From the NCBI GenBank assembly GCA_023898365.1, contig CP060219.1, positions 334,688-398,687 on the forward strand: a stretch of 64,000 bases of DNA, in the 5' to 3' direction. This document shows, piece after piece, positions 4,132 through 52,552 of the stretch. This DNA is from Candidatus Woesearchaeota archaeon. GTDB lineage: Archaea > Nanobdellota > Nanobdellia > Woesearchaeales > GCA-023898365. Under the pieces are notes generated by a model, which was given only the letters and a program-made list of their open reading frames with translations, was not told the DNA's origin and ran no database searches. Position numbers and translations under genes: made by a program. Position 1 is the stretch's first letter. Each line of letters begins with the position of its first letter.

Positions 4132-4161
4132 GGTAATTTATTATTTTCAAAGCCAGCGTGA

Positions 4162-6285: not shown

Positions 6286-6289
6286 TTCT

Positions 6290-8994: not shown

Positions 8995-9025
8995 AATTCA
9001 CCTCAAAAAATAATAAAAAAATAAA

Positions 9026-9421: not shown

Positions 9422-9959
9422 GTCCTGGTTTTAATGTCTTACCACCTGGCGTCCAGCTTGCAGGACAGACTTCGCCGCCATGAGCTGCAACGTATTGTGC
9501 TGCTTGCAATTTACGAACAAGTTCAGCTGCGCTTCGACCGATAGAATTATCATGTAGTTCGTAGGCCTTTAGTATGCCGTCAGGATCAATAATGAATGTT
9601 CCGCGAAGGCTCAAACCTTCTTCTTCAATCATCGTGCCATACGCTCTGCAAATCTTTCCTGTTGGGTCTGCAACCATGGGAAAGGTTATTTTCTTAATCG
9701 TGTCCGATTCATCATGCCATGCTTTGTGAACAAAGGCAGTGTCTGTTGAGACGCTTAGAACTTCAACATTCATTTTCTTAAGCGCTTCATAATGATCGGC
9801 CATTTCGCCAAGTTCCGTTGGACAGACAAAGGTGAAATCAGCAGGGTAGAAGAACAACACCGTCCACTTCCCAGCGTAATCTTTCAGATTGACTTTCTTT
9901 ATCTCGCCACCAACAAATGCGTCAGCAGAGAACTCTGGTGCTTTTTCATTTATTTTCAT
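9399..9959 (-). CDS. ahpC: Typical 2-Cys peroxiredoxin (AhpC/Tsa family)
   Basis: 186 aa with FFYPADFTFVCPTEL (peroxidatic Cys) and C-terminal GEVCPASW (resolving Cys). Confidence 0.9.
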   Translation of the reverse strand: MKINEKAPEFSADAFVGGEIKKVNLKDYAGKWTVLFFYPADFTFVCPTELGEMADHYEALKKMNVEVLSVSTDTAFVHKAWHDESDTIKKITFPMVADPTGKICRAYGTMIEEEGLSLRGTFIIDPDGILKAYELHDNSIGRSAAELVRKLQAAQYVAAHGGEVCPASWTPGGKTLKPGLDLVGKI

Positions 9960-10330
9960 TTTTTCATACCTCCTTTGGCGCCAACACGACAGATAATGTC
10001 GACATGTGTTGGCTCAATTCCTTTTTGTTTCAACGAGTCAAATAGGGTGCGCATGAGCGCGGAATCAAGTTCGTCAACAATAACGCCCTGCTCATCGATA
10101 ATATGAATGTGCGGCTCTACAATCGCATCAAAATGTAATTGATCATGAAGGGAAAACTGTGATAATTCGCCTTGCGCAACAAGCTTATGCAAATTGCGAT
10201 AGACGGTGGCGCGGGTAATCGTTGGGACTTCTTTGACAACTGCGAGAAACACTTCTTCTGCTGTTGGGTGCGAGGTAACAGACGCCACATAGGACAAGAT
10301 TTTTTGGTTTTGAATTGTTTGTCGTTCCAT
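9956..10330 (-). CDS. Fur-family metal/peroxide-responsive transcriptional regulator (PerR-like), the first gene of the oxidative-stress operon
   Basis: 124 aa with HPTAEEV, ITRATVYRNLHKL and the HxH site PHIHIIDEQG. It overlaps the ahpC start by 4 nt. Confidence 0.75.
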   Translation of the reverse strand: MERQTIQNQKILSYVASVTSHPTAEEVFLAVVKEVPTITRATVYRNLHKLVAQGELSQFSLHDQLHFDAIVEPHIHIIDEQGVIVDELDSALMRTLFDSLKQKGIEPTHVDIICRVGAKGGMKK

Positions 10331-10450: not shown

Positions 10451-11623
10451 GTGTTACCATCGATAAGTATGTTACAACTGTTCAAGCCATTGGGAAAGAT
10501 GAATAAAGGCCATTTGCGGCTCATTGCAGAATATCTGCCACGAGAAGATGTGCAAGCAATCACCACACTTCTGAAAAAAAACCTGATTACAGTCACGTAC
10601 GAACAACTCAGAACAACAATCGTACGACCAAAAACCTATCCACAACTCCAAGCAAAACAATCAGACGGCAAACTTGAAAATAAACTTCGAAGCTACAACA
10701 CCTTCATAGAAGAGCGGTTCTATCAAAAAGTATTCAGAGAATTCTCAAGTGTCGCGTTTGAAAAAATAAATTACTTCTTCGAACGAACCGGATTTAAGAA
10801 AAAAGAAATAACAAACGCACTCATCCTGAGCTTGTTTGCGAAAAACCCAACGCACCTACTCCTTCTTGGCGATCCCGAACAAGGACAAAACGAACTACTC
10901 TCTTCAGTAAGCACCCTTTCACCAATTGGCGTAATTGCAGATCTTAAAGAAATTCCTGAATCGCACCTCTATATGAAAACGATCAACAAAAAACGAGAAC
11001 CTGGCTGCATTGCAGAAGCGCACGACGGCATTCTCATCCTCAAACATCTCCAATTCAAAAGCGATGCAGCAACTCACACGTTTGCAAAAGCATTAGATAC
11101 AGGAAAAACAACCTTCAAACGAGGTAAAGCAGAAGTGCACGTAACAAGCAATTTTTCGTGCATAGCCACCTCGTATCCAGATAGTTTTCATTTTGTTGGT
11201 AAACGCATCTCTTTCTTACATGGACAACTCATGTTCCCCCAAACCTTACTTCAAGACTTCTCACTTGTCTTCTTACTGCGAAGAAGTCCGCAACAAGAAT
11301 TCTTCAGAGAAAAAAATTTCTATTCCCTTAACATGCACACGCAAGACATTAATGATCCGGATATTGAATTTGTCAGAAAATACATTGAGTATGCACGAGA
11401 GCACACCATCGACTTTGCCCAGCTCTTAAAAGCAGAAGTAGCAGACTTTGTTGAAAGTCTTATGGGCAAAAAAGAATACTTTATAGAACCAAACAAAAAC
11501 ACTATCAAAGGCATCATTAACTTAGCAAAGGCACGAGCAGCACTTCATTTGCGCAAAGACGTCACCACAGACGATCTCGAATTTGTCTTCTCTATCGTTA
11601 AAGAAAGCGCGATTTCATTCTAA
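10451..11623 (+). CDS. Inactivated MCM-like AAA+ protein (MCM homolog with degenerate Walker A/B motifs and no canonical N-terminal domain)
   Basis: Positional equivalents of MCM motifs: HLLLLGDPEQGQNELL (Walker A lacking GK[ST]), AHDGILILKHLQF (Walker B lacking the DE), SCIATSYP (cf. AAANP), LQDFSLVFLL (cf. SRFDL arginine-finger region) and FVRKYIEYAREH (cf. the MCM LRKYIAYAR motif). Confidence 0.5.
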   Translation: MLPSISMLQLFKPLGKMNKGHLRLIAEYLPREDVQAITTLLKKNLITVTYEQLRTTIVRPKTYPQLQAKQSDGKLENKLRSYNTFIEERFYQKVFREFSSVAFEKINYFFERTGFKKKEITNALILSLFAKNPTHLLLLGDPEQGQNELLSSVSTLSPIGVIADLKEIPESHLYMKTINKKREPGCIAEAHDGILILKHLQFKSDAATHTFAKALDTGKTTFKRGKAEVHVTSNFSCIATSYPDSFHFVGKRISFLHGQLMFPQTLLQDFSLVFLLRRSPQQEFFREKNFYSLNMHTQDINDPDIEFVRKYIEYAREHTIDFAQLLKAEVADFVESLMGKKEYFIEPNKNTIKGIINLAKARAALHLRKDVTTDDLEFVFSIVKESAISF

Positions 11624-19304: not shown

Positions 19305-19641
19305 GTAAGTAAGCGCCAGAGCTAGCTTCGGATCATTCGTGATCTGCGGAAAGTCCACCCACTCATTACCGACCGCTTGTCGCAAGGCAAGAAGGGGAGA
19401 CTCTTGGCAACACAGACAAGAGAAAAAACCACCTGTTTTTTGGGATGATACGCAAAAGAACCGCCTTGGTAACAGACGGGAGTTAACTCGTTGACGACAA
19501 AACAGGAAAGGATGAGAACTGTGCCCTGGTTGAGTGCAAGTCTTTTTGACGCTTAGTCTACTGCTAGCAAGGTCATCGCAAAGAAAAGTACTTCTTTGTT
19601 TGGGCCAATAACAGAAGGTGGCTTATCTGGCGCATACTTAC
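19305..19641 (+). ncRNA. rnpB: RNase P RNA (rnpB), ~337 nt
   Basis: CR-I-like GGAAAGUCCACC at ~19341-19352 and CR-V-like ACAGAAGGUGGCUUAUC at 19611-19627. The P4 strands CCACC/GGUGG are complementary and covary relative to the CCGGG/CCCGG consensus. A 16-bp P1/P2 terminal pairing links 5' GUAAGUAAGCGCCAGA (19305-19320) with 3' UCUGGCGCAUACUUAC (19626-19641). The locus is GC-rich relative to its surroundings and has no ORF. Confidence 0.65.
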
Positions 19642-29532: not shown

Positions 29533-30210
29533 TTGTGGAAAACACATTTAAAGTTTGCTTCTTCAAAAGACCTATTGATGTCTGGAAAAGAACTTTCTCT
29601 TCTTGAGGCGCTTAAAGAAGTGCCCTGTCGCGTTGCTGACTTGCTTGCGACAAAGAACATCGTTCTCATCGGCTTATCTGGAGGTAGTGGTTCAGGAAAA
29701 GGATTTGTTGCAAGACATTTGAAAGAAAAAATTCCTGATTGCGCTGTTCTTTCTATGGATGATTATTATTTTGGCAAAGAAAAAATTACTGATGGGAATT
29801 TTGATAAACCAGAATCGCTCGATCTCAAACTTCTTGTTTCACAGTTGCAACAACTAAAACAGGGGAAAAACATTCAAAAGCCAGAATACGATTTCGTTAC
29901 CAGTTCAAGAAACGGAGAAGTGAATTACGCGCCAAGCAAAGTCATTCTTCTTGAGGGATTGTTTGCACTCATACCGGAAGTCGCTAAAGAACTTGATCTC
30001 AAACTTCTTGTTGTAGCAAAAGAACCACTTCGGTATGTGCGAAGATGTTCTCGAGATCAGAAAACCCGAGGGAGAAGCAAAGAAAGCATTGCGCTCCAAT
30101 GGAAGACCTTTGCAGAGCCCATGTTTCAACTCCATAAAACAAAACAAGAAGAACAAGCAGATATCATAATAAAAAATGAAAAAAAATTTGTGAAAGTAAC
30201 TAAAACTTAA
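29533..30210 (+). CDS. Uridine kinase-like P-loop nucleoside/nucleotide kinase
   Basis: The P-loop IVLIGLSGGSGSGKG is followed by LSMDDYY (cf. Udk ISQDSFY). An alternative start MSGKEL lies at 29578. Confidence 0.55.
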   Translation: MWKTHLKFASSKDLLMSGKELSLLEALKEVPCRVADLLATKNIVLIGLSGGSGSGKGFVARHLKEKIPDCAVLSMDDYYFGKEKITDGNFDKPESLDLKLLVSQLQQLKQGKNIQKPEYDFVTSSRNGEVNYAPSKVILLEGLFALIPEVAKELDLKLLVVAKEPLRYVRRCSRDQKTRGRSKESIALQWKTFAEPMFQLHKTKQEEQADIIIKNEKKFVKVTKT

Positions 30211-31006
30211 CTACTTTCATGATCTTCCATGCGTTCTCGAAGAGCACTTGAACAGTCTGCGCGAAGAACGGTGTGTTAATCCAAATACCTATGTCATATG
30301 TTGGATGAACTTCCGCATCGTCAAGAACCATAAAGACAATCTCTTTGCCATCTACAACGACAAAACGACCCTTTATATCGGTATGACGAACTTCAACAAC
30401 TCCTGCAAGAGGTTTTGCTGATTTCTTCATTTCAGGAGTCATGGGCGCAGCAATACGCACTTTAACTCCTCGCTTCTTGAGCTGCTCAAAGACACCGCGA
30501 AGTGCTTCAAGTTTACGGATAAAACCTTGAGAAGTGGTCAGAATATCGACCGTTTTTTCCGCACCTTTAATTGTCAAATCCAAATGATTATACAAATTAT
30601 GTCGTCCACGAAGAGAACCGGACAAATCTGTTGGTTCGACTAATTCTACACCTTGTGAATGCAATCCTGAAAGCTCATCTAAGAGTTCTGTTCCCTTCAA
30701 ACTATCAAGCTTTTTTACCTGTGCGTCTGCAGATTTTTTAACATTCTTTTTCACACGCTCAAGCACTTCTTTTGGTGGTACTGCAATATATTTAATGGGT
30801 TTGCCAATTTTCATGACAACAAATCCTTTCTTCTCGAGAGACTCGAGAACATCGTAGCTTCTTGACCGAGGCACATTTGCTATGTCCGATAATTCACCTG
30901 CAGTCGATACACCACGAGAAAGTAGCGCACTCCACACTTTCACCTCGTAGAGGTTGAGTGAGAAGTATTTTCGTAAGTCATTTAAGAAATCCTCACTTAC
31001 AATCAT
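30200..31006 (-). CDS. TrmB-family transcriptional regulator
   Basis: N-terminal winged HTH LNLYEVKVWSALLSRGVSTAGELSDIANVPRSRSYDVLESLEKKGFV. The length (268 aa) and a C-terminal effector-domain-like region are typical of archaeal TrmB. Confidence 0.75.
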   Translation of the reverse strand: MIVSEDFLNDLRKYFSLNLYEVKVWSALLSRGVSTAGELSDIANVPRSRSYDVLESLEKKGFVVMKIGKPIKYIAVPPKEVLERVKKNVKKSADAQVKKLDSLKGTELLDELSGLHSQGVELVEPTDLSGSLRGRHNLYNHLDLTIKGAEKTVDILTTSQGFIRKLEALRGVFEQLKKRGVKVRIAAPMTPEMKKSAKPLAGVVEVRHTDIKGRFVVVDGKEIVFMVLDDAEVHPTYDIGIWINTPFFAQTVQVLFENAWKIMKVVKF

Positions 31007-31141
31007 TTTACTTATACCCCCTTACTCGTAGGTAATCCTAAAATCACCCCTTTTTACTGGTAAAGAACAACCACTACTATATATATGTTACGTTTTTAAT
31101 TCTTTTTATAGAAAGGCCTTAGCTAGCAAAATTTGACAACC

Positions 31142-31960
31142 TCAGAGCTTAACAACGAAGAAGAGCTCTGTGGGAATAACAAAACTATCGGCGCGAACAC
31201 CCAATTCTGTCAACACGCGGACAAGCCAACCACGGTGTGATTGCTGTTGTTTACCTCCAATCGTTTGTGTTGGAAACGATATAACAATCATGCGAGGATG
31301 CTTGGAGAGAAGAAGCTCAAGTAGCTTCTTTGAATGCCCCCTCTTCCCCCGTTCGAGATCGTCAAGCACCTTAAAAAGAAAAATAGTATCAGGGCGTTGC
31401 ACTGCGTTATCAACCGCTTCTAAGTCCATTAAATCAAGCGGTGCTGCGGAGCCTGTTTGTTGCCTCGTTTGAAAAAACGTTTGTAATAAGTGTAAATCCT
31501 TATTTGGTAAATCAAAAGCATAATAGGTTACATTAGTTGGCAAAAAAATACTTGATAAAGGATTTAGACCACAACCTAAGTCATGAATTGATGTTGGCAC
31601 TATTTTTGCAAAGAGTTCGCCATACACTTGCGCATAAAATGATAATCGTTCATTCGTGCTTCGATGTGTTTGTAACAATTTGAAGACATCATCATCAGAA
31701 AAAGTTCCTGTTTTTTTCTTTGTCTGTAAATGATACACACCAAATTTATCTCTCAAACGTTTTCGAAGAGCTTTGACAAGAAGTTTGTACCCTGCTGCGC
31801 GGTGATTTTCTTTAAGAAACAAATCATGAGCCACGCGAGAAAGTGCATCGTTCGTTTCGAGAAGCGCATCTAACTCTTTTTGAGCAAAGAAAGGATCAAG
31901 ACCGTTCAATTCTTGTTTTTTTAAAACATCAATAATGAACTGCTCTTTGAAAGTCGTCAT
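31142..31960 (-). CDS. FmrO/ArmA/Rmt-family SAM-dependent 16S rRNA methyltransferase homolog (the aminoglycoside-resistance m7G1405 methyltransferase family)
   Basis: LLQTHRSTNERLSFYAQVYGELF resembles the ArmA segment LLKIHSSTNERVATLNDFYTYVFG. SAM motif I IHDLGCGLNPL matches ArmA LDFGCGFNPL. YYAFDL matches YHAYDI. The C-terminal FLFKVL...MIVISFP matches ArmA FLLKML...FVISFP. Confidence 0.6.
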   Translation of the reverse strand: MTTFKEQFIIDVLKKQELNGLDPFFAQKELDALLETNDALSRVAHDLFLKENHRAAGYKLLVKALRKRLRDKFGVYHLQTKKKTGTFSDDDVFKLLQTHRSTNERLSFYAQVYGELFAKIVPTSIHDLGCGLNPLSSIFLPTNVTYYAFDLPNKDLHLLQTFFQTRQQTGSAAPLDLMDLEAVDNAVQRPDTIFLFKVLDDLERGKRGHSKKLLELLLSKHPRMIVISFPTQTIGGKQQQSHRGWLVRVLTELGVRADSFVIPTELFFVVKL

Positions 31961-31966
31961 GCGAAG

Positions 31967-32989
31967 TTACCAGCGAACGACACCTGCGATGCCGCCAAGC
32001 CCATCAACTTTTTTGATGTTTTGTTCTGTTGTTAATAAATGCACCTTTCCCCCTGCACGATCAACATCTGCCATAAGGTGTTCAAGCTCTTCGAACGTAT
32101 CCTTTTGACGAGAAGCGGAAAGGAATGTTTCCGTTACGAGGAGATAAGAAATGTTTGCTTCGGTGACGAATTTCTTCGTTTCGACAAACCCATAACACGC
32201 ATGTTCTTTTGCAATTGCCTTCATCAAATCATCAACAAGAGAAGTTTCTTTCGCTTCTCGGTCATGTTCAAGGAGCTTTTTCATCCTTGGCGAAACAAGA
32301 ATTTCTTTGATGCCATTATCACTTACACTTGAAATAGTAACGGTCTGCACCAATTGCTTGACTTCGCTTGGCAACTCATTAAATAAGTAATCCTTCCAAA
32401 AATCAGAAGAACCCAAAATGACCGTTTCAACTTTGTATCGAGAAACATAAGAGGAGAGCGTTTCAGCAAGAAGAGAAAAGAAATTATCATGTTTTGCTTC
32501 AACCATTGCTTTTTTTGCCACATCACCTTTGAGTTCAGACAAGATACGATGACCTTGCTGTTCAAAAAGAGCAAAGATTGCATGATCGCGATCAAAAAGA
32601 AGTGCAAGAACAGTTTCTTGAGCAGTGTGCTCAGCTTCGCTCAAATAGTCTTTATGATAGCCAAGAAAGTTTTTCTTGATCTGGAGCACCGTGCCAATTT
32701 CAACAATGAGGGATTGGTGCACGCCACGAGGCATATCATCTGGCGCTTCACGAATAAGACCATTAATGCGGAGAGGATCAGCATAATCGAGCTTTTCAGC
32801 CTCAATGGTGGCAGTGAACTTCTTCTTAGCCAATTTATCGCTGTTATCTCCGACAGAAATTTTTCGCTCAGCAGTACCTGTAATCAAGTCTCCCGGTTCG
32901 ATAATTTTCGTTAGAAACCAATAATCATCAGGGGACGTCACCATGAGTTTGACAACTCCCTTGTGAAAATCACGAGAAGTAACCTTCAT
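31967..32989 (-). CDS. pelA: Pelota (Dom34-like mRNA surveillance factor)
   Basis: The N-terminal domain MKVTSRDFHKGVVKLMVTSPDDYWFLTKIIEPGDLITGTAER matches the Pelota N-terminus. The ~340 aa with eRF1-like central and C-terminal domains are present. The start was chosen at MKVTS (32989); the track ORF extends to 33049. Confidence 0.75.
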   Translation of the reverse strand: MKVTSRDFHKGVVKLMVTSPDDYWFLTKIIEPGDLITGTAERKISVGDNSDKLAKKKFTATIEAEKLDYADPLRINGLIREAPDDMPRGVHQSLIVEIGTVLQIKKNFLGYHKDYLSEAEHTAQETVLALLFDRDHAIFALFEQQGHRILSELKGDVAKKAMVEAKHDNFFSLLAETLSSYVSRYKVETVILGSSDFWKDYLFNELPSEVKQLVQTVTISSVSDNGIKEILVSPRMKKLLEHDREAKETSLVDDLMKAIAKEHACYGFVETKKFVTEANISYLLVTETFLSASRQKDTFEELEHLMADVDRAGGKVHLLTTEQNIKKVDGLGGIAGVVRW

Positions 32990-33357
32990 ACTGTGTAAAA
33001 GCCTTCCCTCGTTAATAAAGTTTTTGGAAAGAAAAGACATTCCATGCATATAAAAAGAAAAAAAAGAAATTTGTCAGAGAACCCTTAAGTTAAAAATAGT
33101 CTTCTAACTCGAAAGAATAGAGTTCTCCAATGTGCAAACGATTAAAGTTTTTTGTGTTATACCGCATAGTTTTCACCTCACAGACCCTCTCTTCAAGGGC
33201 ATAAAGAATTCCTAGAAAAATCAGTATATAAATGAACGGCAAGAAAACTAGAGAAGAAAAATTCACAAAGCTTATAAGAAAAATTCCTCACAAATAACAA
33301 CGAACACCTCAAAAAAGAAGAACTTTTTTTAAAGAACACCCTCTTTCTAGAAGTACT

Positions 33358-34344
33358 ATGTCAGAAAAACAGCAGCGTAGGGCAGCAAAAGTTCCTTTAC
33401 GAGAACTAAACACGTTTCGTGCAGTTTTTGCAAAAGATATTGATAAAAGTTGCCGTCATGAAAAACAAAAAGATTACATGCTTATCGCTCTGCATAGCAA
33501 ACACGATGTTAAAGGCTACGACATTATTGAATACGACTTTAGCAAAAAAGAACCAAGAGATTTTCGCTCAGCTATCACTAAAGTGCTGCCAACCTATAAC
33601 AAATTTGCATTTGATCAACTCGGCTCGATTGCCATCATCGAAGTTGACGAAGAATTTCGTGACAAAGAAGAACTCATCGCAAAGACCCTTCTTGAAACCA
33701 ATGCGACGGTGAAAACTGTTCTGCGCAAAGATTCGACACATGAAAATGAGTTTCGCACACAAACCTACAAGTTTTTGCAAGGCGTCGAAACAAAAATTGC
33801 GACGATCAAAGAAAATAATGTGACCCTTTCATTCGATGTTGAAGAAGTATATTTTTCTGTTCGTCTATCTTCAGAGCGAAAACGTGTTGCACAACAAGTC
33901 AAAGAAAATGAATCAGTGCTTGTTATGTTTAGCGGAGCAGGACCATACGCAATGGTGATAAAAAAAATGCATCCGTCTGCAACAGTGACTGCAGTTGAAA
34001 TGAATCCTGAAGGACACCGGTGGGCAGTGCACAACGCTAAAATAAATAAACTAGATATTACCTGTGTTAATGAAGATGTGGGCAAGCTCGCACTGGGAAA
34101 AACGTTTGACCGCATTGTCATGCCCGCTCCAAAAAACGCAGAAGATTTCTTAGAAAAAGCAAAAGAACACGCAACACAAGGAACCATTATTCATTTGTAC
34201 TGCTTTGGAGAAGAAAATGAATTAGCAGAAAAAAAGAAAAGAATAGAACACGTCTTTTCAAAAGTCACGTTTCTTGGAGACACGGTGTGCGGCCAACAAT
34301 CACCCCGCATCTATCGCTATTGTGTTGATTTTCGCGTCGATTGA
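33358..34344 (+). CDS. trm5: tRNA (guanine37-N1)-methyltransferase Trm5 / Taw2-like class I methyltransferase
   Basis: Motifs VLVMFSGAGPYAMV (cf. Trm5 MFAGVGPFA) and VTAVEMNPEG, with a Met-10-like fold arrangement. Confidence 0.75.
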   Translation: MSEKQQRRAAKVPLRELNTFRAVFAKDIDKSCRHEKQKDYMLIALHSKHDVKGYDIIEYDFSKKEPRDFRSAITKVLPTYNKFAFDQLGSIAIIEVDEEFRDKEELIAKTLLETNATVKTVLRKDSTHENEFRTQTYKFLQGVETKIATIKENNVTLSFDVEEVYFSVRLSSERKRVAQQVKENESVLVMFSGAGPYAMVIKKMHPSATVTAVEMNPEGHRWAVHNAKINKLDITCVNEDVGKLALGKTFDRIVMPAPKNAEDFLEKAKEHATQGTIIHLYCFGEENELAEKKKRIEHVFSKVTFLGDTVCGQQSPRIYRYCVDFRVD

Positions 34345-35903
34345 AAATCATCTAAATTGATCTGACCCTTACGTTTGTTCTTTTTAACCACTTCAGGCAT
34401 GGGCTCACCAACTTGCTCTTTAAGCACGCGAGCAGTTGCGGGACCAACTAAAGAAGAAAGAGAAGTCGGGTCGATCTTTTTGAGATCCCCCACTGTTTTA
34501 AGCCCGTTGCGAAACAAAATTCTTGCACGAACACGACCAACTTGCTTCAAACGAAGCAAAGCAAGAAGTTCCTCTTTAACCCCGTACGAAAGTCGAACCC
34601 GTAATCGTTCAATATGTTTAATTAGATGTTGACGCTTTGTTAACTGAGATAATTCTTTAAGTGCGTATAACAACCAATCAATGGTTTCTCGCTTAAAATG
34701 TAACTCACCAGGACGCAAACCGAACTCGTCAAGCAAAATATCCTCGCCGACTTCTTCAATCCAAGAAAGAAAAACAAGGGTTGTTTTCATCCCGTCAAGA
34801 AATTCCGCATACTCATGGTCGTACATACTTGGTGGTTGAAAAACGAACTCGTGATCATGCGCAACAATAGCTTTTTCGATCTGCTCAAGCTCCTTTGTGC
34901 GAACACGCAGTAATGGACGAATCTCCTTAGTTTTCATCAATGCTTGAAGTAACGAAAAAGGAGAAGGATCATCAGAAAGAAGCGAAAGCGCATCAAGAAG
35001 TAATTTTGCACTGTACGGATCAAGATAAAGTTCTGCAACGCGCTTACCTAAAGGAGTTGCTTCAAGTTTACGAGGAGAAGAAGAAAGAAGTGAGGAAGCG
35101 GATTGGAAACCTTTTGCGTCCGAAGATGCTGAAGCAACCAAAAAACCCCACAATTCGAGTTCACCAATAATTTTTTCAATTTTAAGAGCCACCGCCTCAT
35201 CATCACCGTATTGATCAGCATAGAACGTTTCCGAAAAAAAATCTTTTACTTCCTCTTGCGAAAACACCATACCTGAAGCAACCAAACTCAACACATACAT
35301 ACGAAGCACCGGTTCAACAGCCAACTTAGAATCAATATCCTCCGGAACACCAAGTAAATACTTATCATGCAAGAGTTCTTTTTGATCAGAAGAATCTGCA
35401 AGCAAAATAGCCTCGCCAAAATCATCCTTACCGGGACGACCAGCTCGACCCATCATCTGCAACGCCTCAAGCACAGGAATAAAATATAACCCCCGCGCAC
35501 CATACCTGCGCAAACTCTTAATCACCACACGAAACGCAGGAAGGTTAAGACCAGCAGCGAGCGTTGGCGTAGCACAAATCACCTTAATACGTTTATCCTT
35601 GAAAGCAGACTCCACAAGAGAACGCTGAGCGCTATGAAGACCTGAATGGTGGAACGCGACGCCACGATGCACCACCTTAGACAAACGCTTACATTGCTTT
35701 GTAGGAGAAGAAACAGCCTTAAGGATGTTCTCAGAAAGCTCCTCACAAGAAGCAAGAAGATCAAGTTGGCTTGCGATCGCATCAGCCTGCGCCTCAGCAG
35801 AAGCCTTCGTTGGAGCAAACACCAAGATCTGTTTATCATTCGCAATAGTGTCAAGCGCCAAATCAACCAATTGATCACCAGATCGTTCAGTGAGAGAAAC
35901 CAT
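34317..35903 (-). CDS. Hel308/Hjm-type Ski2-like helicase containing domains 2-5 only (RecA2, winged helix, ratchet, HhH). The RecA1 ATP-binding domain is absent, so this is a candidate split gene or an N-terminally truncated gene.
   Basis: The ORF begins exactly at the domain-2 boundary (DKQILVFAPTKASAEAQA). It has motif IV/V VICATPTLAAGLNLPAF and motif VI QMMGRAGRPGKD. No Walker A, DExH or SAT motif appears in any frame upstream; nt 35904-36078 is non-coding repeat DNA followed by tRNA genes. Confidence 0.7.
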   Translation of the reverse strand: MVSLTERSGDQLVDLALDTIANDKQILVFAPTKASAEAQADAIASQLDLLASCEELSENILKAVSSPTKQCKRLSKVVHRGVAFHHSGLHSAQRSLVESAFKDKRIKVICATPTLAAGLNLPAFRVVIKSLRRYGARGLYFIPVLEALQMMGRAGRPGKDDFGEAILLADSSDQKELLHDKYLLGVPEDIDSKLAVEPVLRMYVLSLVASGMVFSQEEVKDFFSETFYADQYGDDEAVALKIEKIIGELELWGFLVASASSDAKGFQSASSLLSSSPRKLEATPLGKRVAELYLDPYSAKLLLDALSLLSDDPSPFSLLQALMKTKEIRPLLRVRTKELEQIEKAIVAHDHEFVFQPPSMYDHEYAEFLDGMKTTLVFLSWIEEVGEDILLDEFGLRPGELHFKRETIDWLLYALKELSQLTKRQHLIKHIERLRVRLSYGVKEELLALLRLKQVGRVRARILFRNGLKTVGDLKKIDPTSLSSLVGPATARVLKEQVGEPMPEVVKKNKRKGQINLDDFQSTRKSTQ

Positions 35904-35948: not shown

Positions 35949-36093
35949 GCAGACAACAGAAAACAGAAAAAAAAAACATGAGCCCGGGGGGATATAGGAA
36001 CGCCAACAACAATTTGGCGTTTGTGAGCCTGCATACGCTAACACGTAGCAGACAACAGAAAACAGAAAAAAAAAAACATGAGCCCGGGGGGAT
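35949..36093. repeat. Two direct copies (35949-35993 and 36048-36093, 45 and 46 nt) of the tRNA-Ile 3'-terminal 15 nt plus its 30-nt poly-T trailer, separated by 54 nt. This is an att-like tandem duplication of a tRNA 3' end.
   Basis: The string gcagacaacagaaaacagaaaaaaaaa(a)catgagcccggggggat occurs twice. The second copy is continuous with the intact tRNA-Ile. Confidence 0.8.
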
Positions 36094-36152
36094 TTGAACC
36101 CCCGACCACACGATTATCAGTCGTGCACTCCACCAGACTAAGCTACGGGCTC
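36079..36152 (-). tRNA. tRNA-Ile (anticodon GAT)
   Basis: Folded manually. Acceptor GAGCCCG/CGGGCUC, anticodon stem CACGA/UCGUG with loop CUGAUAA, T-arm GGGGG-UUCAAAU-CCCCC and discriminator A. CCA is not encoded. Confidence 0.85.
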
Positions 36153-36162
36153 GAATAAAAAA

Positions 36163-36237
36163 TGGCGCCTCCGACCAGGATCGAACTGGTGACCTTGCGG
36201 TTAACAGCCGCACGCTCCACCGCTAAGCTACGGAGGC
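36163..36237 (-). tRNA. tRNA-Asn (anticodon GTT), with 3' CCA encoded
   Basis: Acceptor GCCUCCG/CGGAGGC, anticodon stem UGCGG/CCGCA with loop CUGUUAA, T-arm ACCAG-UUCGAUC-CUGGU, discriminator G then CCA. It lies 10 nt upstream of tRNA-Ile. Confidence 0.85.
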
Positions 36238-42136: not shown

Positions 42137-45100
42137 CTAATTATATTTTCTGTTTCTCCAGCGATCACGCACGTAGCTGACAATCATCATAAGGATCGTT
42201 ATTGCAATAACCCCTCCTACTGCAAGAACAACCCGTTCAGAAAGTAAATCGGTGAGGGTCACCATACTAAAAAGACCTCTTGGAGAATCAAGATTTATTT
42301 CATTCTTCTCATTATCAATTAGATACTTACATCCATTTATGATGTTATCAAGCTCGGTTAATGCTTGAGAGATAGGAATACTTGATGCTCTTCGTTCAAG
42401 CTCGGTAAGCAGTTCGTTCATTTCAGCACAGGCAGGGTTTGAAGCGAGAAGGTCTCGAGCAAACGTAACTTTTACTTTGTATGCTTCTTCATCGTCAGTT
42501 GATTTCTCAAGAGAGTTGATATGAATTGTTGCGGAGTCGCTTGCAACGGGATCGTCTGTTGTGACATTCACGACGATTTCATACGTGCCACTCGTGCGAT
42601 AATTGCCAAGAGTAAGTAACGTAGATGCGTTCTGCCCAATACCAAGTGAAGCAACGTAATCCTCACTGAATGTTACCGTAACATTTTCAGAGCCGGCAAT
42701 TGCGTTAAAATTAATTCCGTAGAGCGAATCATCCCAGGTGTTCACAACAGTGATGGGAACCGTGACCGTATCATTTTCATAAACGGCAACTACATCGCTA
42801 ACCACTATTGAGAACGGTTCAGGAGAATCAACTTCTTCCTGGAAAGGCACAGTAACTGTTGTGGTTACTGTTCTTGTTCCGCCAGGATTGTTTGATGTTT
42901 GCACATCAATTACAGGATCGGGAACATTAGTAATGACAATGCGAACCGTATTCGAAGAAACATATGCTCCTGCGTCATCAGTTGCGTTGAAGACCACATC
43001 ACAGTACCCTAATGATGTTGGAGTAATGGTTAAAGACGTATCTGTTATGCTCAGTGTTGCAACAGAGCAAGATTCGCCGTAGGCTAAAGAGAAGTTTAAG
43101 GTTGACGATTCCGCACCATCAAGCAAACCATTTGCGCTGGTATCATCATCTGCATCGTAAAAACGCTGAACGCTGTTACGATATATAAAATAATTTGCAA
43201 GTGCAGTTGTTTGTGAAACAGAGAAGTTATCAAGAGGACCATAAAATACAGGAGGACGATTAAGATTGGCAATAGTAATATTCCAACTAAAGTTTGCCGT
43301 GCTATAATACGCATCAGTTGCACTTACGACAATATCATGTGTTCCCGCGGTTGAAAAGTTAAATGATCTGGTGTAATTTGAATTGACCCCCGGGTCGACA
43401 CCAGGCAAATTAAGTTTCTGCACACCATCAACATACCATCTGTAAGAAATATTATTATTTATCTGGGTCGTGTCGTTTGTCGCGAGCGCATCAAACGTAA
43501 CAGTTGCGTTTTCTGAAAAATTGATGGTGATGTTTGTCAAACCACCAACGACAAACCATGAAGTGTTTAGTGAGGTATTTGACATGAAAGGAGTCACTTG
43601 GGTAAATTGAGGGGGAACAGATTCGTTGTAAATGGTGATGTTAACAAGCTGCCAATCGACCAACCCACCCGCATCAGTAACTGAAGCGTTTGCTTCGTAC
43701 ACCCCATACTCTCCTGATTGAGGAACAAAAGAAACAGTCACTTCATTGACATCCGTTTTTGAGTAAGCAAAGCCCGTTGGTGATGCCCCTGTAAAAGCAA
43801 AGTTAAAGGTCAGATTATCATCAAGAACAAAAAAATCAATATCAGTTGCGTAAAAAACATTTTCATAGAGAACATCTTCAACAAGAATGCCAAAATTGAT
43901 GGCATCAGACACATTGTCTTGATTATTGTCCCATATTGGCGCATCGTTTGCATTGCCTATTTCAAAGGAAAGAACTTCATAATCGCACACATTTGCAAGA
44001 TCACAGACCGAAACATTCAATGTTTTATTTCCAACTTGCGCATTTGTTGGTGTAAAATTCATCCAATAAAGCGTCATGTTACCTTGCACCAGACCAAGGT
44101 TTGACGCGTTAAATCCTGCTTCGTATGCAAACGACCAAGTAAGGTTGTCTCCGTCGCGATCAATTGCGGTAAAGTATGATGAACCAAGAATGCCTTGCGT
44201 ATAATTAACAAGAGAAACAGTCATTACAGGCACCGAATTGTTACGAATAGTGATGTTTGCAATAGCAGTTGTTATAGCCTCACCATCATCAACATACACT
44301 TCGAAGAGGTAATTTCCAATTAGACCTGGACCGACTGTAAAATTAAATTCTCCCGATGTGCTATTAATAGTGAAATTAGAATGGTTTGTTGAAAACGTTA
44401 AGGTATCGCCTGCATATGTTAGTTGGTCAACATCAGAATAATTAAGTGGTGAGGAAAACGTTGCATTCACATACCACGTAAAATTTGAAAGATTGTATAT
44501 GCCGTCGGTTAGTTCGTAAATTACCGGAGCATCATTTAGGTTTAAAATGTTAAACGTGACATTATTCTCCGTATAGCCTCCATGATCATCAGTTACTCGA
44601 ATGCGGACGTTTCGGCAGGCGACGTGGTCATTTGTCATAATTTGGTTGATCACGATAGAAGCGTTCGAACCGTTCACTAAGGTGGTGAATGACCAAGGAT
44701 TTGAAAGGGAGCACGTGCGGGGCGTGATAGTGAACGTGATATTGTCTGCAACATCTGCATCGGAAGCGTTGATATAAAACGTGAAGAGATCTGACTGATT
44801 AGTATCAGGAGTGACTAGGTTCGATGTGATCTGCGGCAATTGATTAACAGCTGAAACGTTAATGGTAAAAGAGGTTTCAACTGGCGGCAATAAACTTGCA
44901 TTGTCGCTAATGTTCATATACACCGTCCACAATCCTCTGTCAGCAAATTGAGGCGCGTTGCTTGGACGGTTAAAGGTAACATACCCTTCCGTGTTTGATG
45001 ACTGAACAAAAATAATTGAAGCAAGATCAGTGCTCATGTTAAAGGTGAACGGTTCGTCTCCTTCCTCATCAAACCCAGAAATTGAATAATTAAACGTGAT

Positions 45101-45775
45101 GTCTTCTGTCGCCTGTTGATTCGTTAAATTTGGTAAAAAATATGCTTGATCATTTACTTCTGCAACTGTGTAGGTTACGGTAATTCCTAAGAGCGAGGGA
45201 GTGTCATCTTTTACATAAAAAGTAAAATTGGTGTCACCAATATGTGCTGCTAAAGGTATGCACGTGACTAATCCCGCCCCAGAAATATCGCAGTAGTTTG
45301 TTCCGTCCGTTTCTAAAAAGGTCAGCGCATCACCATCGGGATCAAAAGCTGAAAGCTGTGTTTGGAAAACGACATCTTCTGTTAAGAGCTCATCAGTTGC
45401 ATTTGGAAGGTTAGGAAGGGAATTATTAATGGTGAACAATTTTCCTGCGGTGGCGCTTGTCGAACCATTCCACAACGTCACATTACAACTCCATCGTTCA
45501 CCACGCTGCGCAATATAGGAAAGTAACGTCGTGCGATTGTCAGTGAACGGAATGTTTGCAACTGTCGTGTAAGGAGAACTGCCATTATACCAAGTCACGT
45601 TTTGTTGTACGGTGTCAATTGAGGGTTTCCAAGAACAGATAATGTTGTCTCTTGTTGTAGGAGTTGACGGCGAAATGCTCGGCAGCGTAGAAAAATTTAC
45701 TGCAAGCGCAAATGCTATGATGAAGAGGGCAAGCGAAGTCACAACAAGTGTTTGGAAGAGGTCAACTCGTTTCAT
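42137..45775 (-). CDS. Giant cell-surface glycoprotein-like protein (~1213 aa from MKRVD) with a signal peptide, a sequon-rich beta-rich ectodomain and a C-terminal TM anchor
   Basis: Signal peptide MKRVDLFQTLVVTSLALFIIAFALAVNF, dozens of NxS/T sequons and the C-terminal TM helix VVLAVGGVIAITILMMIVSYV followed by a basic tail. The track ORF starts further upstream at 45841 and overlaps the RHH gene. Confidence 0.7.
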   Translation of the reverse strand: MKRVDLFQTLVVTSLALFIIAFALAVNFSTLPSISPSTPTTRDNIICSWKPSIDTVQQNVTWYNGSSPYTTVANIPFTDNRTTLLSYIAQRGERWSCNVTLWNGSTSATAGKLFTINNSLPNLPNATDELLTEDVVFQTQLSAFDPDGDALTFLETDGTNYCDISGAGLVTCIPLAAHIGDTNFTFYVKDDTPSLLGITVTYTVAEVNDQAYFLPNLTNQQATEDITFNYSISGFDEEGDEPFTFNMSTDLASIIFVQSSNTEGYVTFNRPSNAPQFADRGLWTVYMNISDNASLLPPVETSFTINVSAVNQLPQITSNLVTPDTNQSDLFTFYINASDADVADNITFTITPRTCSLSNPWSFTTLVNGSNASIVINQIMTNDHVACRNVRIRVTDDHGGYTENNVTFNILNLNDAPVIYELTDGIYNLSNFTWYVNATFSSPLNYSDVDQLTYAGDTLTFSTNHSNFTINSTSGEFNFTVGPGLIGNYLFEVYVDDGEAITTAIANITIRNNSVPVMTVSLVNYTQGILGSSYFTAIDRDGDNLTWSFAYEAGFNASNLGLVQGNMTLYWMNFTPTNAQVGNKTLNVSVCDLANVCDYEVLSFEIGNANDAPIWDNNQDNVSDAINFGILVEDVLYENVFYATDIDFFVLDDNLTFNFAFTGASPTGFAYSKTDVNEVTVSFVPQSGEYGVYEANASVTDAGGLVDWQLVNITIYNESVPPQFTQVTPFMSNTSLNTSWFVVGGLTNITINFSENATVTFDALATNDTTQINNNISYRWYVDGVQKLNLPGVDPGVNSNYTRSFNFSTAGTHDIVVSATDAYYSTANFSWNITIANLNRPPVFYGPLDNFSVSQTTALANYFIYRNSVQRFYDADDDTSANGLLDGAESSTLNFSLAYGESCSVATLSITDTSLTITPTSLGYCDVVFNATDDAGAYVSSNTVRIVITNVPDPVIDVQTSNNPGGTRTVTTTVTVPFQEEVDSPEPFSIVVSDVVAVYENDTVTVPITVVNTWDDSLYGINFNAIAGSENVTVTFSEDYVASLGIGQNASTLLTLGNYRTSGTYEIVVNVTTDDPVASDSATIHINSLEKSTDDEEAYKVKVTFARDLLASNPACAEMNELLTELERRASSIPISQALTELDNIINGCKYLIDNEKNEINLDSPRGLFSMVTLTDLLSERVVLAVGGVIAITILMMIVSYVRDRWRNRKYN

Positions 45776-45938
45776 GTGAAAGTAACCGCTTAATTGTTTT
45801 ATTTTTCTGAACATAGGTCTTTGTCTTTGCTGCGAGCTCATCTAAGACCAGTTCTTTAATCGTTTGCTGAGAAATAACTGATGCTAAACGCAAGCGTTGA
45901 TGCAAGTCGTCAGGTAAAGCAATATTCAGTCGTCCCAT
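45762..45938 (-). CDS. Small ribbon-helix-helix (CopG/Arc/MetJ-like) protein, 58 aa. Unannotated in the ORF track.
   Basis: Manual translation: MGRLNIALPDDLHQRLRLASVISQQTIKELVLDELAAKTKTYVQKNKTIKRLLSHETS. The N-terminal beta-strand plus helix (RLNIALPDDLHQRL) is the classic RHH signature. Its stop overlaps the surface-protein ATG. Confidence 0.55.
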   Translation of the reverse strand: MGRLNIALPDDLHQRLRLASVISQQTIKELVLDELAAKTKTYVQKNKTIKRLLSHETS

Positions 45939-46210: not shown

Positions 46211-48274
46211 TTACTTCTTTGCCCACGTTAATGAATACGTAATTTGCAAGAATAACCGATGCAGATCGTAAAAGACCATGTCCTTTTGCTGCTGCGTTAA
46301 TGGGTCGAACACCTCTTTTAATTCAAAATATTTGCGCTTTGCAATCTCCGTTTCTTGAAATTCGAGGGCTAAGAGTGCATTACGAACACCTAGCTTAATA
46401 CGTTCCACAGGATTTCCTTCGAGATCCAATTCTTGCACAACACGATGAACGTCGCGTTCTTCAACAACGCTAATTTGATACACGAGCATCCGAAGTTCTT
46501 CGATAAGCAACGGAATATCTGCAAAAGTTACTCTGCGATGTTTGAACTCGAACTCAGAAACCTTTGTGTTAAACGATAAGAAAATCTTCTGCAACGTTTC
46601 GGACTTAATTTTTGTGCGAATTTCCTCAAGCAATTCGTTTGATTCGTACTCAAAAGCAAGATCAAACGTTTGTGAAAAAAAGAAGCGACTGAAATCCATG
46701 AGCGAATCAAGAAGCTTTTCAAGAGCGTCTTTTGCAGGATCATTTCCTAACGAAAGAAGTTTATTTTCAAGTGCGGCGAGTTTTACGAGTAAATCATTCT
46801 TTTGGGTTTCCCTGATAAGAATCTGCTTTCGAAATGAAGAAAGCAAGAACCAACCAAGCGTGACCAGCGCTTTATTAATCTTCGTTGAGAATGCACGGTA
46901 TAACACTGCAAGCACAGCAACAGAAAGAATACCGACCATGATAACCCCTGAAAAGACAGGGTTTGTTTCTTCAAAAAAAGAAGGAGATTGCACACCAATA
47001 CAAGGAGAGCAAGGCCCACCACAATCAACACCCTCTTCATCTTGGTTTTTTATACCATCAAAACAAGTCTCGCATGGCTCGCAAATAGGCCCGCCACAAT
47101 CAACACCCACTTCATCATAATTTCTAATGCCATCATGACAATTCTGGCACGGAGCGCAATACGGTCCACCACAATCAATTTCTTCCTCTTCATTATTTAA
47201 TTGGCCATCAGTGCAATTGCCACACGCAGGACAGGGACCCCCACAATCAACACCCTCCTCGCCTTGATTTTGTTCGCCATCAAAGCACGTCAGCAAATAT
47301 TCACATTCTTGCCAGTAATACTTTTTATACTCATTAGGATCACATGCATAAATATCGACACATTTGCGTCGCTGCGTGCCATTACGCAAACACGCACCCC
47401 AATCAGCACATTTCCATAAAGAGGTACAATCGGTAATACTCACACTCGAAGAGGAAGGAGAAGTAGTTTCTTCTTGTACTTCTTGTCGGCAGTTAACTTT
47501 AATTCTCACCAAATTACTTTGAGCGGAAAGATCACCTGGGTCCGTGGCAGTGAAAATAACATACTCCTCTGCGCAAGTAGAGCCTCGAATAAGTACTTCT
47601 CCAGTATCTTCAACAATCACAATATTAACGGAAGAAGTTGGCGTTACCGAAAAATTCAACGTATCACCGTCAGGATCATCAAAATAATCGTTAAGCCAAA
47701 AAACACTGTACAAAATATCTTCTTGAAGCGTTTGATCAGGAATAGGAGATTCTAAATTTGGAGGATCGTTAATATCTAGAACAGTAAATGTGTAGATGGA
47801 AGACGCATTGTTGTTGTCACATCCACTGTTGTCAACAACTTCAATTAATGATTGGTGCAGACCAACAGAAGCTTGAAATCCGTTCAAAGAAAGTGTTGTC
47901 CCAGTGAGCGTAGTGTTCATTTCAAAAACTTCAGTGGCAGAAATAGTATATCCTCCCTCATCAATAATTGAAATGACACACTCATACGCATTATCAACAA
48001 GCGCTGTTGATTGGTTAAAAGTTGCTGAACACCCAGAAAGATCGATAACTGGACGTGCATTAAAACACATTTGCACAGACCCTGTCGCCTTCCCCGAAGC
48101 ATCTGAATTCGTGTCGTGATACATAAATCGCGCAACACTACCTAGTAAGAGAAGATTCTGAGCTATTAAGAAGATCGCTACAAAGAGCACAATTCCTGTA
48201 AACAAACGATCAGATTTCGTTCGAGTAGCAGCAAGATGCTCAAGTGGTTTTTTCTTGTGTTTAGCGCGCTTCAC
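46211..48274 (-). CDS. Surface protein (687 aa) with an N-terminal TM/signal anchor, an ectodomain containing 4 tandem 25-aa Cys-rich CGGP repeats, a second TM helix and a cytoplasmic coiled-coil tail
   Basis: Repeat units of the form C-x-DG-x-x-N-x-x-E-E-G-VDCGGP-C-x-x-C, occurring four times. The underlying ~75-bp nucleotide repeats (ggcccaccacaatcaacaccc) lie at ~47013, 47089, 47164 and 47236. The TM helix VIMVGILSVAVLAVLY is followed by a helical K/E/L-rich C-terminus. Confidence 0.65.
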   Translation of the reverse strand: MKRAKHKKKPLEHLAATRTKSDRLFTGIVLFVAIFLIAQNLLLLGSVARFMYHDTNSDASGKATGSVQMCFNARPVIDLSGCSATFNQSTALVDNAYECVISIIDEGGYTISATEVFEMNTTLTGTTLSLNGFQASVGLHQSLIEVVDNSGCDNNNASSIYTFTVLDINDPPNLESPIPDQTLQEDILYSVFWLNDYFDDPDGDTLNFSVTPTSSVNIVIVEDTGEVLIRGSTCAEEYVIFTATDPGDLSAQSNLVRIKVNCRQEVQEETTSPSSSSVSITDCTSLWKCADWGACLRNGTQRRKCVDIYACDPNEYKKYYWQECEYLLTCFDGEQNQGEEGVDCGGPCPACGNCTDGQLNNEEEEIDCGGPYCAPCQNCHDGIRNYDEVGVDCGGPICEPCETCFDGIKNQDEEGVDCGGPCSPCIGVQSPSFFEETNPVFSGVIMVGILSVAVLAVLYRAFSTKINKALVTLGWFLLSSFRKQILIRETQKNDLLVKLAALENKLLSLGNDPAKDALEKLLDSLMDFSRFFFSQTFDLAFEYESNELLEEIRTKIKSETLQKIFLSFNTKVSEFEFKHRRVTFADIPLLIEELRMLVYQISVVEERDVHRVVQELDLEGNPVERIKLGVRNALLALEFQETEIAKRKYFELKEVFDPLTQQQKDMVFYDLHRLFLQITYSLTWAKK

Positions 48275-51311: not shown

Positions 51312-52552
51312 CAGACCTTCCTCCTTGAGCGCATAACAAAGAAAATGATGACAACATTTGAAACAAGAACAATAAGGACGAGCACCACAATAAGACCGAT
51401 GCCTGACGAAGAAGACTCCTTTGCGCCACCTACAACTTGACCAGTTACCTCGCCAAACTTCTCTAAAGAAACTTCGTCTGGTGCAATCACCGCAGAATAG
51501 ATGTCGCTTCGCACCTTCCCATCATAATGCAACGTCACATCAAAATCATACGTGCCAGGCAATATATCCTTTGTATCCCAAAACCCTTTGAGAACAGCGC
51601 TTGAAAACGCAGGCAAACGTTCAGTAGGGGTTTTAAAGGAAGTTACTTCGGCACCGTTTGTCTCCCGCAAGATAACTTCAGCATAGAGTTCCTCAATAGG
51701 ATTATTCCATAAACTGCGTACCAGAAGATCGATGCGAGCAATTTCTCCAAGATGATATGAAGAAACTGCAAAGCTTGCCAATTCTACCGAAAGAGATCCT
51801 GCTTCAAAGATACGATCCTTGATAAGCGATTCTCCATCATACGTAATTGATGCTTTCAACGTGTACGTACCAGGGTTAGGCGGCGTCCATAACGCAGTAA
51901 GTTTTCCTTCCTCTTTTGAGGGAAGCGAAATTTCAGAAGAGGTAACTGTGCCAACAACCTCATTAGCAGGGTTAAGAACGGTGAAGGTTGCGCGCACTGC
52001 TCGCAAAGGATCAGTTCCGACATTCATCGCGGAAACAATGAACTCTACAACATCCGTTCGAGGAACTGCGGTAACTTCAGCTTTAAGATATTTCCCTGGA
52101 TAAGGAACATTAAAACGGAATTGAGAAATAACTGCGGTCGTTGCGGCAATAATGCCATTATCAGTTGCAACAGAATTAACTTCTCCATTACCAAGAGATT
52201 CAGGAAGAAGCAAAATAACCATTTCGAGCATGTGAAGGCCGGGTTCGATATCTCGTGGAAAAGTAAAACTAAACGAGACCGTTTTTTTCTCATCACTCTC
52301 ACGAACCGTAATAACACCAATATCTGATTTGACCGCATCAGATAAGACGCCTGTTGGATACACACTTACTTTGAAACTCTCCCTGTTCGGATTAAGAATG
52401 TCAAATGATAACTGAACAGTCTGACCAGGAGCATAATCTATCAATCGTGCTGCAGGAGAAACAGTAAGGGCAGAAACTTGCGTAACACAAAGCACACTCA
52501 CTAACAAAAGCAAGCCAAGCAACAAACCTTTACTTTGTGTTAATTGTTTCAT
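51311..52552 (-). CDS. Surface protein (413 aa) with a signal peptide and a C-terminal TM anchor; a paralog of 48796-49944
   Basis: Signal peptide LLLGLLLLVSVLCVTQVSA. C-terminal IGLIVVLVLIVLVSNVVIIFFVMRSRRK. Start codon overlaps the stop of the giant gene in an ATGA arrangement. Confidence 0.6.
   Translation of the reverse strand: MKQLTQSKGLLLGLLLLVSVLCVTQVSALTVSPAARLIDYAPGQTVQLSFDILNPNRESFKVSVYPTGVLSDAVKSDIGVITVRESDEKKTVSFSFTFPRDIEPGLHMLEMVILLLPESLGNGEVNSVATDNGIIAATTAVISQFRFNVPYPGKYLKAEVTAVPRTDVVEFIVSAMNVGTDPLRAVRATFTVLNPANEVVGTVTSSEISLPSKEEGKLTALWTPPNPGTYTLKASITYDGESLIKDRIFEAGSLSVELASFAVSSYHLGEIARIDLLVRSLWNNPIEELYAEVILRETNGAEVTSFKTPTERLPAFSSAVLKGFWDTKDILPGTYDFDVTLHYDGKVRSDIYSAVIAPDEVSLEKFGEVTGQVVGGAKESSSSGIGLIVVLVLIVLVSNVVIIFFVMRSRRKV

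Follow-up and report, generated by a model that had tools for sequence, protein, structure and literature searches.

The methyltransferases that form 7-methylguanosine (m7G) at G1405 of 16S ribosomal RNA (rRNA) are known from pathogens (RmtC, RmtB, RmtF, and ArmA) and from aminoglycoside-producing actinomycetes (Sgm, Kgm, GrmA, and FmrO). All belong to the same Pfam family, FmrO, and share one fold, in which a helical N-terminal domain is followed by a Rossmann C-terminal domain. The producer enzymes, like the one studied here, are encoded on the chromosome. To our knowledge, only these producer and pathogen enzymes have been characterised. Environmental, chromosomally encoded homologues in Chloroflexota (Dictyobacter, Ktedonobacteraceae, Anaerolineae, and Flexilinea) are mentioned as uncharacterised in the RmtC literature. 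In archaea, the Arm family is represented by NEQ545 of Nanoarchaeum equitans, introduced as its ‘first archaeal ortholog’; the catalytic motifs were described as conserved, the helical N-terminal domain as strongly divergent, and the function as unclear (Husain et al., 2010; PMC2896518). In this study, we examined a relative of these enzymes encoded at 31142-31960 on the minus strand of a 64,000-nucleotide (nt) stretch of a Candidatus Woesearchaeota genome (contig CP060219.1; hereafter the window). This protein, the query, is an intact, divergent FmrO-family methyltransferase dependent on S-adenosylmethionine (SAM), and a member, in its native chromosomal context, of an archaea-specific subfamily of the FmrO/Arm/Rmt enzymes found in the DPANN archaea (Woese-, Pace-, and Nanoarchaeota). 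We hold with moderate confidence that it is functional and chromosomally inherited, that it would constitutively methylate N7 of a guanine in the decoding centre of small-subunit (SSU) rRNA, G1405 by default, and that aminoglycoside insensitivity would be a side effect.

The original prediction for this gene, made from the letters of the window alone, had placed it in the FmrO/ArmA/Rmt family and had been aware of no description of the family from archaea. That it was undescribed there is wrong, as NEQ545 was reported in 2010 (PMC2896518), and the claim of archaeal novelty is overstated; beyond that 2010 remark, our literature search found no account of an archaeal or DPANN FmrO clade. The family assignment itself is upheld by the Pfam, PDB, and Foldseek results. 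The gene and the parts of its product (aa, amino acids) are as follows:

31142-31960, minus strand: methyltransferase gene, a complete ATG-initiated open reading frame (ORF) of 272 aa with a TGA stop at 31142-31144
31730-31960, minus strand: N1 helical subdomain (aa 1-77), with the basic helix K59/K63/R66/R70 and the aromatic Y76, placed by DSSP of the AlphaFold2 (AF2) model and alignment to RmtC
31811-31849, minus strand: extra helix of the archaeal clade (aa 38-50), inside N1, placed by the same model and alignment
31610-31729, minus strand: short N2 linker or subdomain (aa 78-117), containing H-R-STNER
31646-31666, minus strand: the H-R-STNER block (HRSTNER, aa 99-105), in which S101 corresponds to Ser107 of RmtC, a contact of the SAM carboxylate
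31145-31609, minus strand: C-terminal Rossmann-fold catalytic domain (aa 118-272), with motif I, D150, K197, and VISFP
31556-31582, minus strand: motif I, DLGCGLNPL (aa 127-135)
aa 146-150: YYAFD, in which D150 corresponds to Asp160 of RmtC
31361-31381, minus strand: FLFKVLD (aa 194-200), in which K197 corresponds to Lys204 of RmtC
aa 226-230: VISFP, in the C-terminal domain
31223-31270, minus strand: equivalent of Loop237-246, the helix-44-distorting loop of RmtC (aa 231-246, TQTIGGKQQQSHRGWL), in which K237 corresponds to Arg241

The protein matches Pfam FmrO (PF07091) far better than chance would allow, scoring 66.6 bits (E = 3e-18) where the gathering cutoff is 27. No other Pfam family exceeds its cutoff, and the one further match is below it; a profile search had been set beforehand as the refuting test, and no other methyltransferase family outscores FmrO in it. 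Among all PDB sequences, phmmer retrieves m7G1405 methyltransferases only: RmtB (2.3e-15), RmtC (7e-13), Sgm (8e-12), ArmA (1.7e-11), and RmtF (2e-10). Every one of the ArmA-like sequence blocks quoted in the original prediction was found at its checked coordinates. The AF2 model, built with 24 homologues, has a mean predicted local distance difference test score (pLDDT) of 88.8, with low values in the linker aa 76-83. It is helical up to aa 116, with N1 helices at aa 4-13, 23-36, 38-50, and 56-77, and then adopts an alternating beta/alpha fold, the two-domain architecture of FmrO enzymes. In Foldseek searches of the PDB, the 14 best matches are to RmtC, Sgm, RmtB, RmtF, and ArmA (1e-14 to 1e-10; among the top ones Sgm, 3lcu, with E 1.5e-13 and TMq 0.62), at 22-27% sequence identity, and methyltransferases outside the family score 1e-8 or weaker.

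The query belongs to a large archaeal clade, and its nearest relatives are only 30-38% identical to it. Using a pattern derived from an 11-sequence alignment together with tblastn in one genome per GTDB species, we confirmed at least 190 relatives among species-representative genomes. The best 80 of these are all from archaeal metagenome-assembled genomes (MAGs), are 28-41% identical to the query, and carry the labels Woese-, Pace-, or Nanoarchaeota/Nanoarchaeia, or ‘uncultured Methanosarcinales’. On a wider scale, a profile search of 5.8 billion proteins gave at least 3995 clusters of the family, the named bacterial ones being mostly Chloroflexota, and an exhaustive hidden Markov model (HMM) search of 1.84 billion representatives gave 1924 clusters at E ≤ 1e-3. 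The archaeal HMM was calibrated on labelled sequences, of which the archaeal ones score 199-316 bits and the bacterial ones 181 or less, and at least 150 of the clusters (50% identity) are archaeal-type, all at 236 bits or more. The 774 clusters at E ≤ 1e-30 were rejected as the size of the archaeal clade, since Chloroflexota members pass the same cut. With the same profile, the Chloroflexota homologues, which are the nearest bacterial group by sequence, score 154-181 bits, and the resistance enzymes 110-130 bits.

A neighbor-joining (NJ) tree was calculated from 120 sequences and 251 aligned columns, including the query, 78 locus-derived archaeal sequences, seven named Chloroflexota, unlabelled metagenomic sequences, and RmtB, RmtC, RmtF, ArmA, and Sgm, the named resistance enzymes being taken from plasmids and PDB alignments. 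The split between archaeal and bacterial sequences was recovered in 200 of 200 bootstraps, with all labelled archaeal sequences on one side and all labelled bacterial and resistance sequences, Sgm included, on the other. The Chloroflexota homologues fall on the bacterial side as well, carrying the bacterial K-Y and His54 signature and lacking the archaeal N1 insertion. The query carries the archaeal signature (K-K-x-E-L, L-R70, and K-V-L-D200). Sequences on the archaeal side are on average 38% identical to one another and those on the bacterial side 37%, and across the split the mean falls to 25%. In depth, the archaeal clade thus equals the entire bacterial family as it is known, which does not fit a recent transfer and fits long residence in DPANN archaea or a single ancient transfer.

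Among the 80 loci, 12 contigs are deposited as ‘uncultured Methanosarcinales archaeon’ TPA_asm entries (L001, L002, L003, L005, L006, L007, L010, L023, L024, L030, L035, and L057), all of low GC content (0.26-0.45). Eight of the 12 are syntenic with Woesearchaeota contigs, with flanks 40-90% identical, which makes the label doubtful; genuine Methanosarcinales hosts were therefore rejected, and the label is probably wrong or a placeholder. A link to the candidate phyla radiation (CPR)/Patescibacteria was likewise rejected, as the Patescibacteria-labelled fragment (P0024) is bacterial-type. Two metagenomic proteins (P0193, 482 aa, and P0198, 489 aa) have an archaeal-type FmrO domain fused to a further, generic class I methyltransferase domain (Methyltransf_11/25), with motif I reading DLGCGANPY in both. 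We know of no earlier description of such a tandem-methyltransferase fusion in the FmrO family.

The query gene is flanked on both sides by genes on the same strand:

31967-33049, minus strand: pelota (aPelota/Dom34), the upstream partner, with Pfam eRF1_1/2/3
31961-31966, minus strand: 6-nt spacer CTTCGC, from the pelota stop TAA to the methyltransferase ATG
31007-31141, minus strand: 135-nt A/T-rich spacer 3' of the methyltransferase gene, with TATA-like boxes and a GGGGGT motif, read from the sequence
30200-31006, minus strand: TrmBL2-like DNA-binding protein, with Pfam TrmB and Regulator_TrmB

The location between a TrmB gene and pelota is as originally predicted, except that the TrmB gene is more precisely TrmBL2-like, its product giving a full-length match to the P. 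furiosus TrmBL2 structures (1e-19). The 6-nt spacer is too short to hold a promoter. Co-transcription is accordingly the most economical interpretation, and pelota and the methyltransferase gene most likely form one operon. To judge by its motifs, the 135-nt spacer probably provides a separate promoter and ribosome-binding site for the TrmBL2-like gene, which is a conserved neighbour that probably has no part in the function of the methyltransferase. The archaeal setting is confirmed by an archaeal RNase P RNA at 19309-19637, with three tRNAs also in the window, and by the protein entry ‘hypothetical protein H6502_01830’, identical in sequence, from a Candidatus Woesearchaeota MAG (1.13 Mb contig). 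The identical protein and the same gene order were also recovered in an independent assembly from the Sequence Read Archive (SRA).

The wider neighbourhood consists of housekeeping genes, namely AlaX-like, uridine kinase, TrmB-family, pelota, Trm5/Tyw2, the C-terminal part of a Hel308-type helicase, phosphoenolpyruvate (PEP) synthase, an ATP-binding cassette (ABC) transporter, and MoxR/DUF58/VWA genes. Among the neighbours of the methyltransferase gene there are no integrase, transposase, or other mobile-element genes. The GC content of the gene (0.396) and that of its third codon positions (GC3, 0.326) are within the distribution of the window genes (0.412 ± 0.023 and 0.351 ± 0.055). Recent horizontal gene transfer (HGT) or a mobile cassette was therefore rejected on composition, neighbours, and phylogeny, and the horizontal acquisition suggested originally finds no support, as a recent event, for a gene that belongs to an archaea-only clade of at least 190 species.

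The same evidence bears on the possibility that the gene is a true aminoglycoside-resistance determinant, kept because neighbouring producers expose these archaea to 4,6-disubstituted deoxystreptamine aminoglycosides. Resistance is the sole role experimentally shown for the FmrO family, and archaeal 16S rRNA carries the bacterial-type A1408. The gene can also look accessory, in that it is present at the pelota-TrmBL2 site in some related lineages and absent in others: at least five loci anchored on TrmBL2 have pelota abutting TrmBL2 with no methyltransferase gene between them, an observation that concerns this site only, as the gene could lie elsewhere in those genomes. Within the lineage, the gene has then been gained or lost between pelota and TrmBL2, and it is not strictly fixed there. 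This clean insertion/deletion polymorphism (L119, L127, L145, L150, and L164 versus L085, L093-L095, L104, and L130) lends itself to dating when the methyltransferase gene was acquired or lost. On the other hand, neither an aminoglycoside biosynthetic cluster nor any other resistance gene is found nearby, and the family's plasmid-borne resistance genes adjoin IS26 and blaTEM, unlike the query gene in its housekeeping operon. The host-like composition, the monophyly and depth of a clade known from 190 or more species whose genomes measure about 1 Mb, and its stable synteny with pelota or with a pilus-like cluster also speak against a resistance determinant, which we consider distinctly unlikely.

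The two syntenic settings differ in extent. Pelota followed by the methyltransferase gene, with a TrmB-like gene nearby, occurs in 8 of the 80 loci anchored on the methyltransferase, and pelota followed by the methyltransferase gene beside a TrmBL2-like gene in 12 of a further 80 loci, which are metagenomic and were collected independently with the TrmB-like gene as anchor. In about 30 of the 80 methyltransferase loci, representing a large subclade, the gene has a conserved place within a type-IV-pilus/archaellum-like cluster on the opposite strand, with pilin-like small proteins on one side of it and two FlaJ/TadC-like membrane proteins plus a FlaI-like ATPase on the other (for example L025, L056, L058, L063, and L073). 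Pelota helps to split ribosomes, and free 30S subunits are the substrate of the bacterial FmrO-family enzymes. The linkage to pelota is suggestive in this respect, yet it is confined to a subclade and is no evidence of function.

Constitutive methylation of the decoding centre, the function that we favour, can be weighed residue by residue, as the functional residues of RmtC have been identified by cryo-electron microscopy (cryo-EM) of the RmtC-30S complex and mutagenesis (PMC10288597). We aligned the 80 best archaeal relatives to RmtC and used 16 bacterial sequences for comparison. Ser107 (S101 in the query) is invariant in all 80 archaeal and all 16 bacterial members, Asp160 (D150) is Asp or Glu in 80/80 archaeal members, and motif I (GxGxNP) is invariant or nearly so over the 80 archaeal sequences. 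The target guanine is positioned in RmtC by the aromatic Tyr60 and by the universally conserved, N7-directing Lys204 (PMC10288597); the latter is kept (K197) in 79/80 archaeal members, and the position of the former (Y76) is aromatic in 79/80. In the basic docking helix, Lys43 is kept as K59, Lys47 (K63) is kept in 77/80, and Arg50 (R66) in 78/80, and Arg241 is conservatively replaced (K237; Lys or Arg in 76/80). The query thus shares with RmtC, RmtB, RmtF, and ArmA the SAM contacts, the two guanine-positioning residues, and the K47/R50 docking helix, and the conservation of K197, Y76, S101, D150, K59, K63, and R66 speaks for an unchanged geometry of docking.

To judge by its homologues, the helical domain at the N-terminus would dock on the surface of the SSU rRNA at helices 24, 27, 44, and 45, and the loop after the VISFP strand would distort the top of helix 44. 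K197 and Y76 would then hold a guanine, flipped into the pocket that binds SAM, in position for methylation at N7. The most probable target would be the equivalent of G1405 in archaeal 16S rRNA. We infer that the modification would be installed constitutively, not as an acquired drug resistance, and that any insensitivity to 4,6-disubstituted deoxystreptamine aminoglycosides would arise incidentally.

In addition to the loci that lack the gene at the pelota-TrmBL2 site, several features of the protein and data from N. equitans weigh against this reading. The NCBIfam generic Rmt model (NF000466) aligns with the query over aa 51-271 (model positions 28-254 of 254) at 113.7 bits, far under the 250-bit equivalog cutoff. 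Of the N1 docking residues that are essential in RmtC (Lys20, Tyr21, Arg39, Lys47, Arg50, and His54), the query retains only the equivalents of K47 and R50. Arg39 is changed to A55 in the query, and three replacements are clade-wide: Lys20 by E17 (Glu in 65/80), Tyr21 by L18 (Leu in 67/80), and His54 by R70 (Arg in 64/80). In RmtC, each of the substitutions K20E, Y21F, R39E, and H54A causes a severe defect; K20, Y21, and H54 touch helix 45 at G1515/G1516 (PMC10288597). The column of His54 is in a helix whose alignment is robust (K-x-x-R-x-x-L-[HR]). The K20/Y21 loop has a less certain register, and K14 and K15 of the query sit two to three residues away. Thr207, which contacts A1408 in RmtC (PMC10288597), is Asp in the query and Asp or Glu in 77/80 archaeal members. 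Moreover, all archaeal members have an insertion of about 20 residues, which forms the extra N1 helix in the AF2 model, and N2 of the query is shorter than that of the RmtC group.

NEQ545, by its published description, resembles the query in its DPANN host, its conserved C-terminal motifs, and its diverged helical N-terminal domain. One N-terminal helix is reportedly missing from NEQ545, and the query has one more than RmtC; NEQ545 is compared here by its published description. The rRNA of its host has been analysed by matrix-assisted laser desorption/ionization mass spectrometry (MALDI-MS) over nt 1390-1446 of 16S rRNA (Seistrup et al., 2017; PMC5389701). The authors detected UC(Am)(Am)Gp, an RNase T1 fragment corresponding to nt 1406-1410. 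Fragments containing nt 1402 were missing from the expected masses, and G1401 had a modification signature in RiboMeth-seq, the modification being left unassigned (PMC5389701). As m7G1405 blocks RNase T1, so that the fragment starting at 1406 vanishes at stoichiometric methylation (Savic et al., 2009; PMC2760815), detection of the 1406-1410 fragment indicates that G1405 of N. equitans is not fully N7-methylated. The two studies together thus speak against stoichiometric m7G1405 in the only DPANN archaeon examined. A modified, T1-resistant G1401 would account for both the missing 1402 fragments and the G1401 signature.

Taken together, the clade-wide changes at docking residues essential in RmtC and the N. 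equitans rRNA data make the exact target uncertain. An enzyme of the same family and chemistry might thus act on another decoding-centre guanine, such as G1401, or on another RNA. The replaced helix-45 contacts, the extra N1 helix, the acidic residue in place of Thr207, and RNase T1 cleavage after G1405 in N. equitans are all in its favour; the conserved catalytic, SAM-binding, and docking-helix residues listed above are not, and the N. equitans data would bear on the clade only if NEQ545 belongs to it. We regard this altered target as rather unlikely. It would be possible to go one step further and see the DPANN clade as a housekeeping branch that installs a constitutive decoding-centre m7G, possibly at G1401 and not at G1405, a proposal that we make tentatively and at low confidence; with m7G at a nearby guanine, G1401 for example, the N. 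equitans mass spectra and the altered helix-45 contacts would be brought into agreement.

A last feature that weighs against methylation of G1405 by the query is the loop after VISFP (GGKQQQSHRGW), which has Gln at the position of Met245, where Met is found in 61/80 relatives and Ile in 10/80. M245A inactivates RmtC (PMC10288597), and the query has no equivalent of this residue. Compared with L005 and L032, the closest relatives, the loop is short by one residue, and it has two to three alignment gaps relative to other members. The enzyme might accordingly be impaired or decaying in this genome, its helix-44-distorting loop having lost an essential hydrophobic residue. However, the ORF is intact and full-length, the SAM-binding and catalytic residues are all conserved, and the model is confident. 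The tight operon junction is preserved, and the identical protein in the independent SRA assembly means that the shortened loop is not an assembly error. The loop is, moreover, generally variable across the pelota-linked subclade (F/R in L004, for example). An impaired enzyme is, on this evidence, highly unlikely.

If the clade is indeed such a housekeeping branch, an ancient enzyme of ribosome maturation would have the bacterial aminoglycoside-resistance enzymes among its relatives, and the decoding centre of DPANN ribosomes would bear a modification unseen in any studied organism. A deep, archaea-only branch in native chromosomal contexts makes a role in ribosome maturation, other than resistance, directly testable, and predicts an rRNA modification never mapped in these uncultured archaea. 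We searched 164 loci for the 3' domain of 16S rRNA and found none, and the window itself contains no rRNA. The ‘hypothetical protein’ entries of the clade could be given a better annotation, and metagenomic resistome surveys with FmrO-family profiles should not count its members as acquired resistance genes.

Some other genes in the window are also worth noting. The TrmBL2-like protein has 62-76% identity across more than 549 metagenomic relatives, and is 70-75% identical in genomes where pelota is only 33-37% identical; it is conserved as strongly as a chromatin protein in DPANN archaea. The Hel308-type helicase ORF (34317-35903, minus strand, 528 aa) has Helicase_C, HTH_61, the archaeal domain 4, and HhH, and lacks the N-terminal RecA1/DEAD part; tRNA-Ile and tRNA-Asn are directly upstream (36079-36237), and the same 528-aa product is called in the independent assembly. 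The helicase gene may be split or truncated. A giant ORF of 3812 aa (52549-63987, minus strand) is preceded by a number of large ORFs, at 42137-45841 (1234 aa), 46211-48274, and 1363-8350, which, apart from a weak Big_9 match in the first, match nothing in Pfam; these giant and large ORFs presumably encode DPANN surface or adhesion proteins. An ORF of 390 aa (10451-11623, plus strand) matches only the P-loop and lid domains of MCM, both weakly (34 and 24.5 bits), and may encode an MCM-like AAA+ protein that is truncated or divergent. Finally, in what is putatively the genome of an anaerobic DPANN archaeon, a compact oxidative-stress cluster (8527-10330, minus strand) encodes a Fur/PerR-family regulator, two AhpC/TSA peroxiredoxins, and a desulfoferrodoxin (superoxide reductase).

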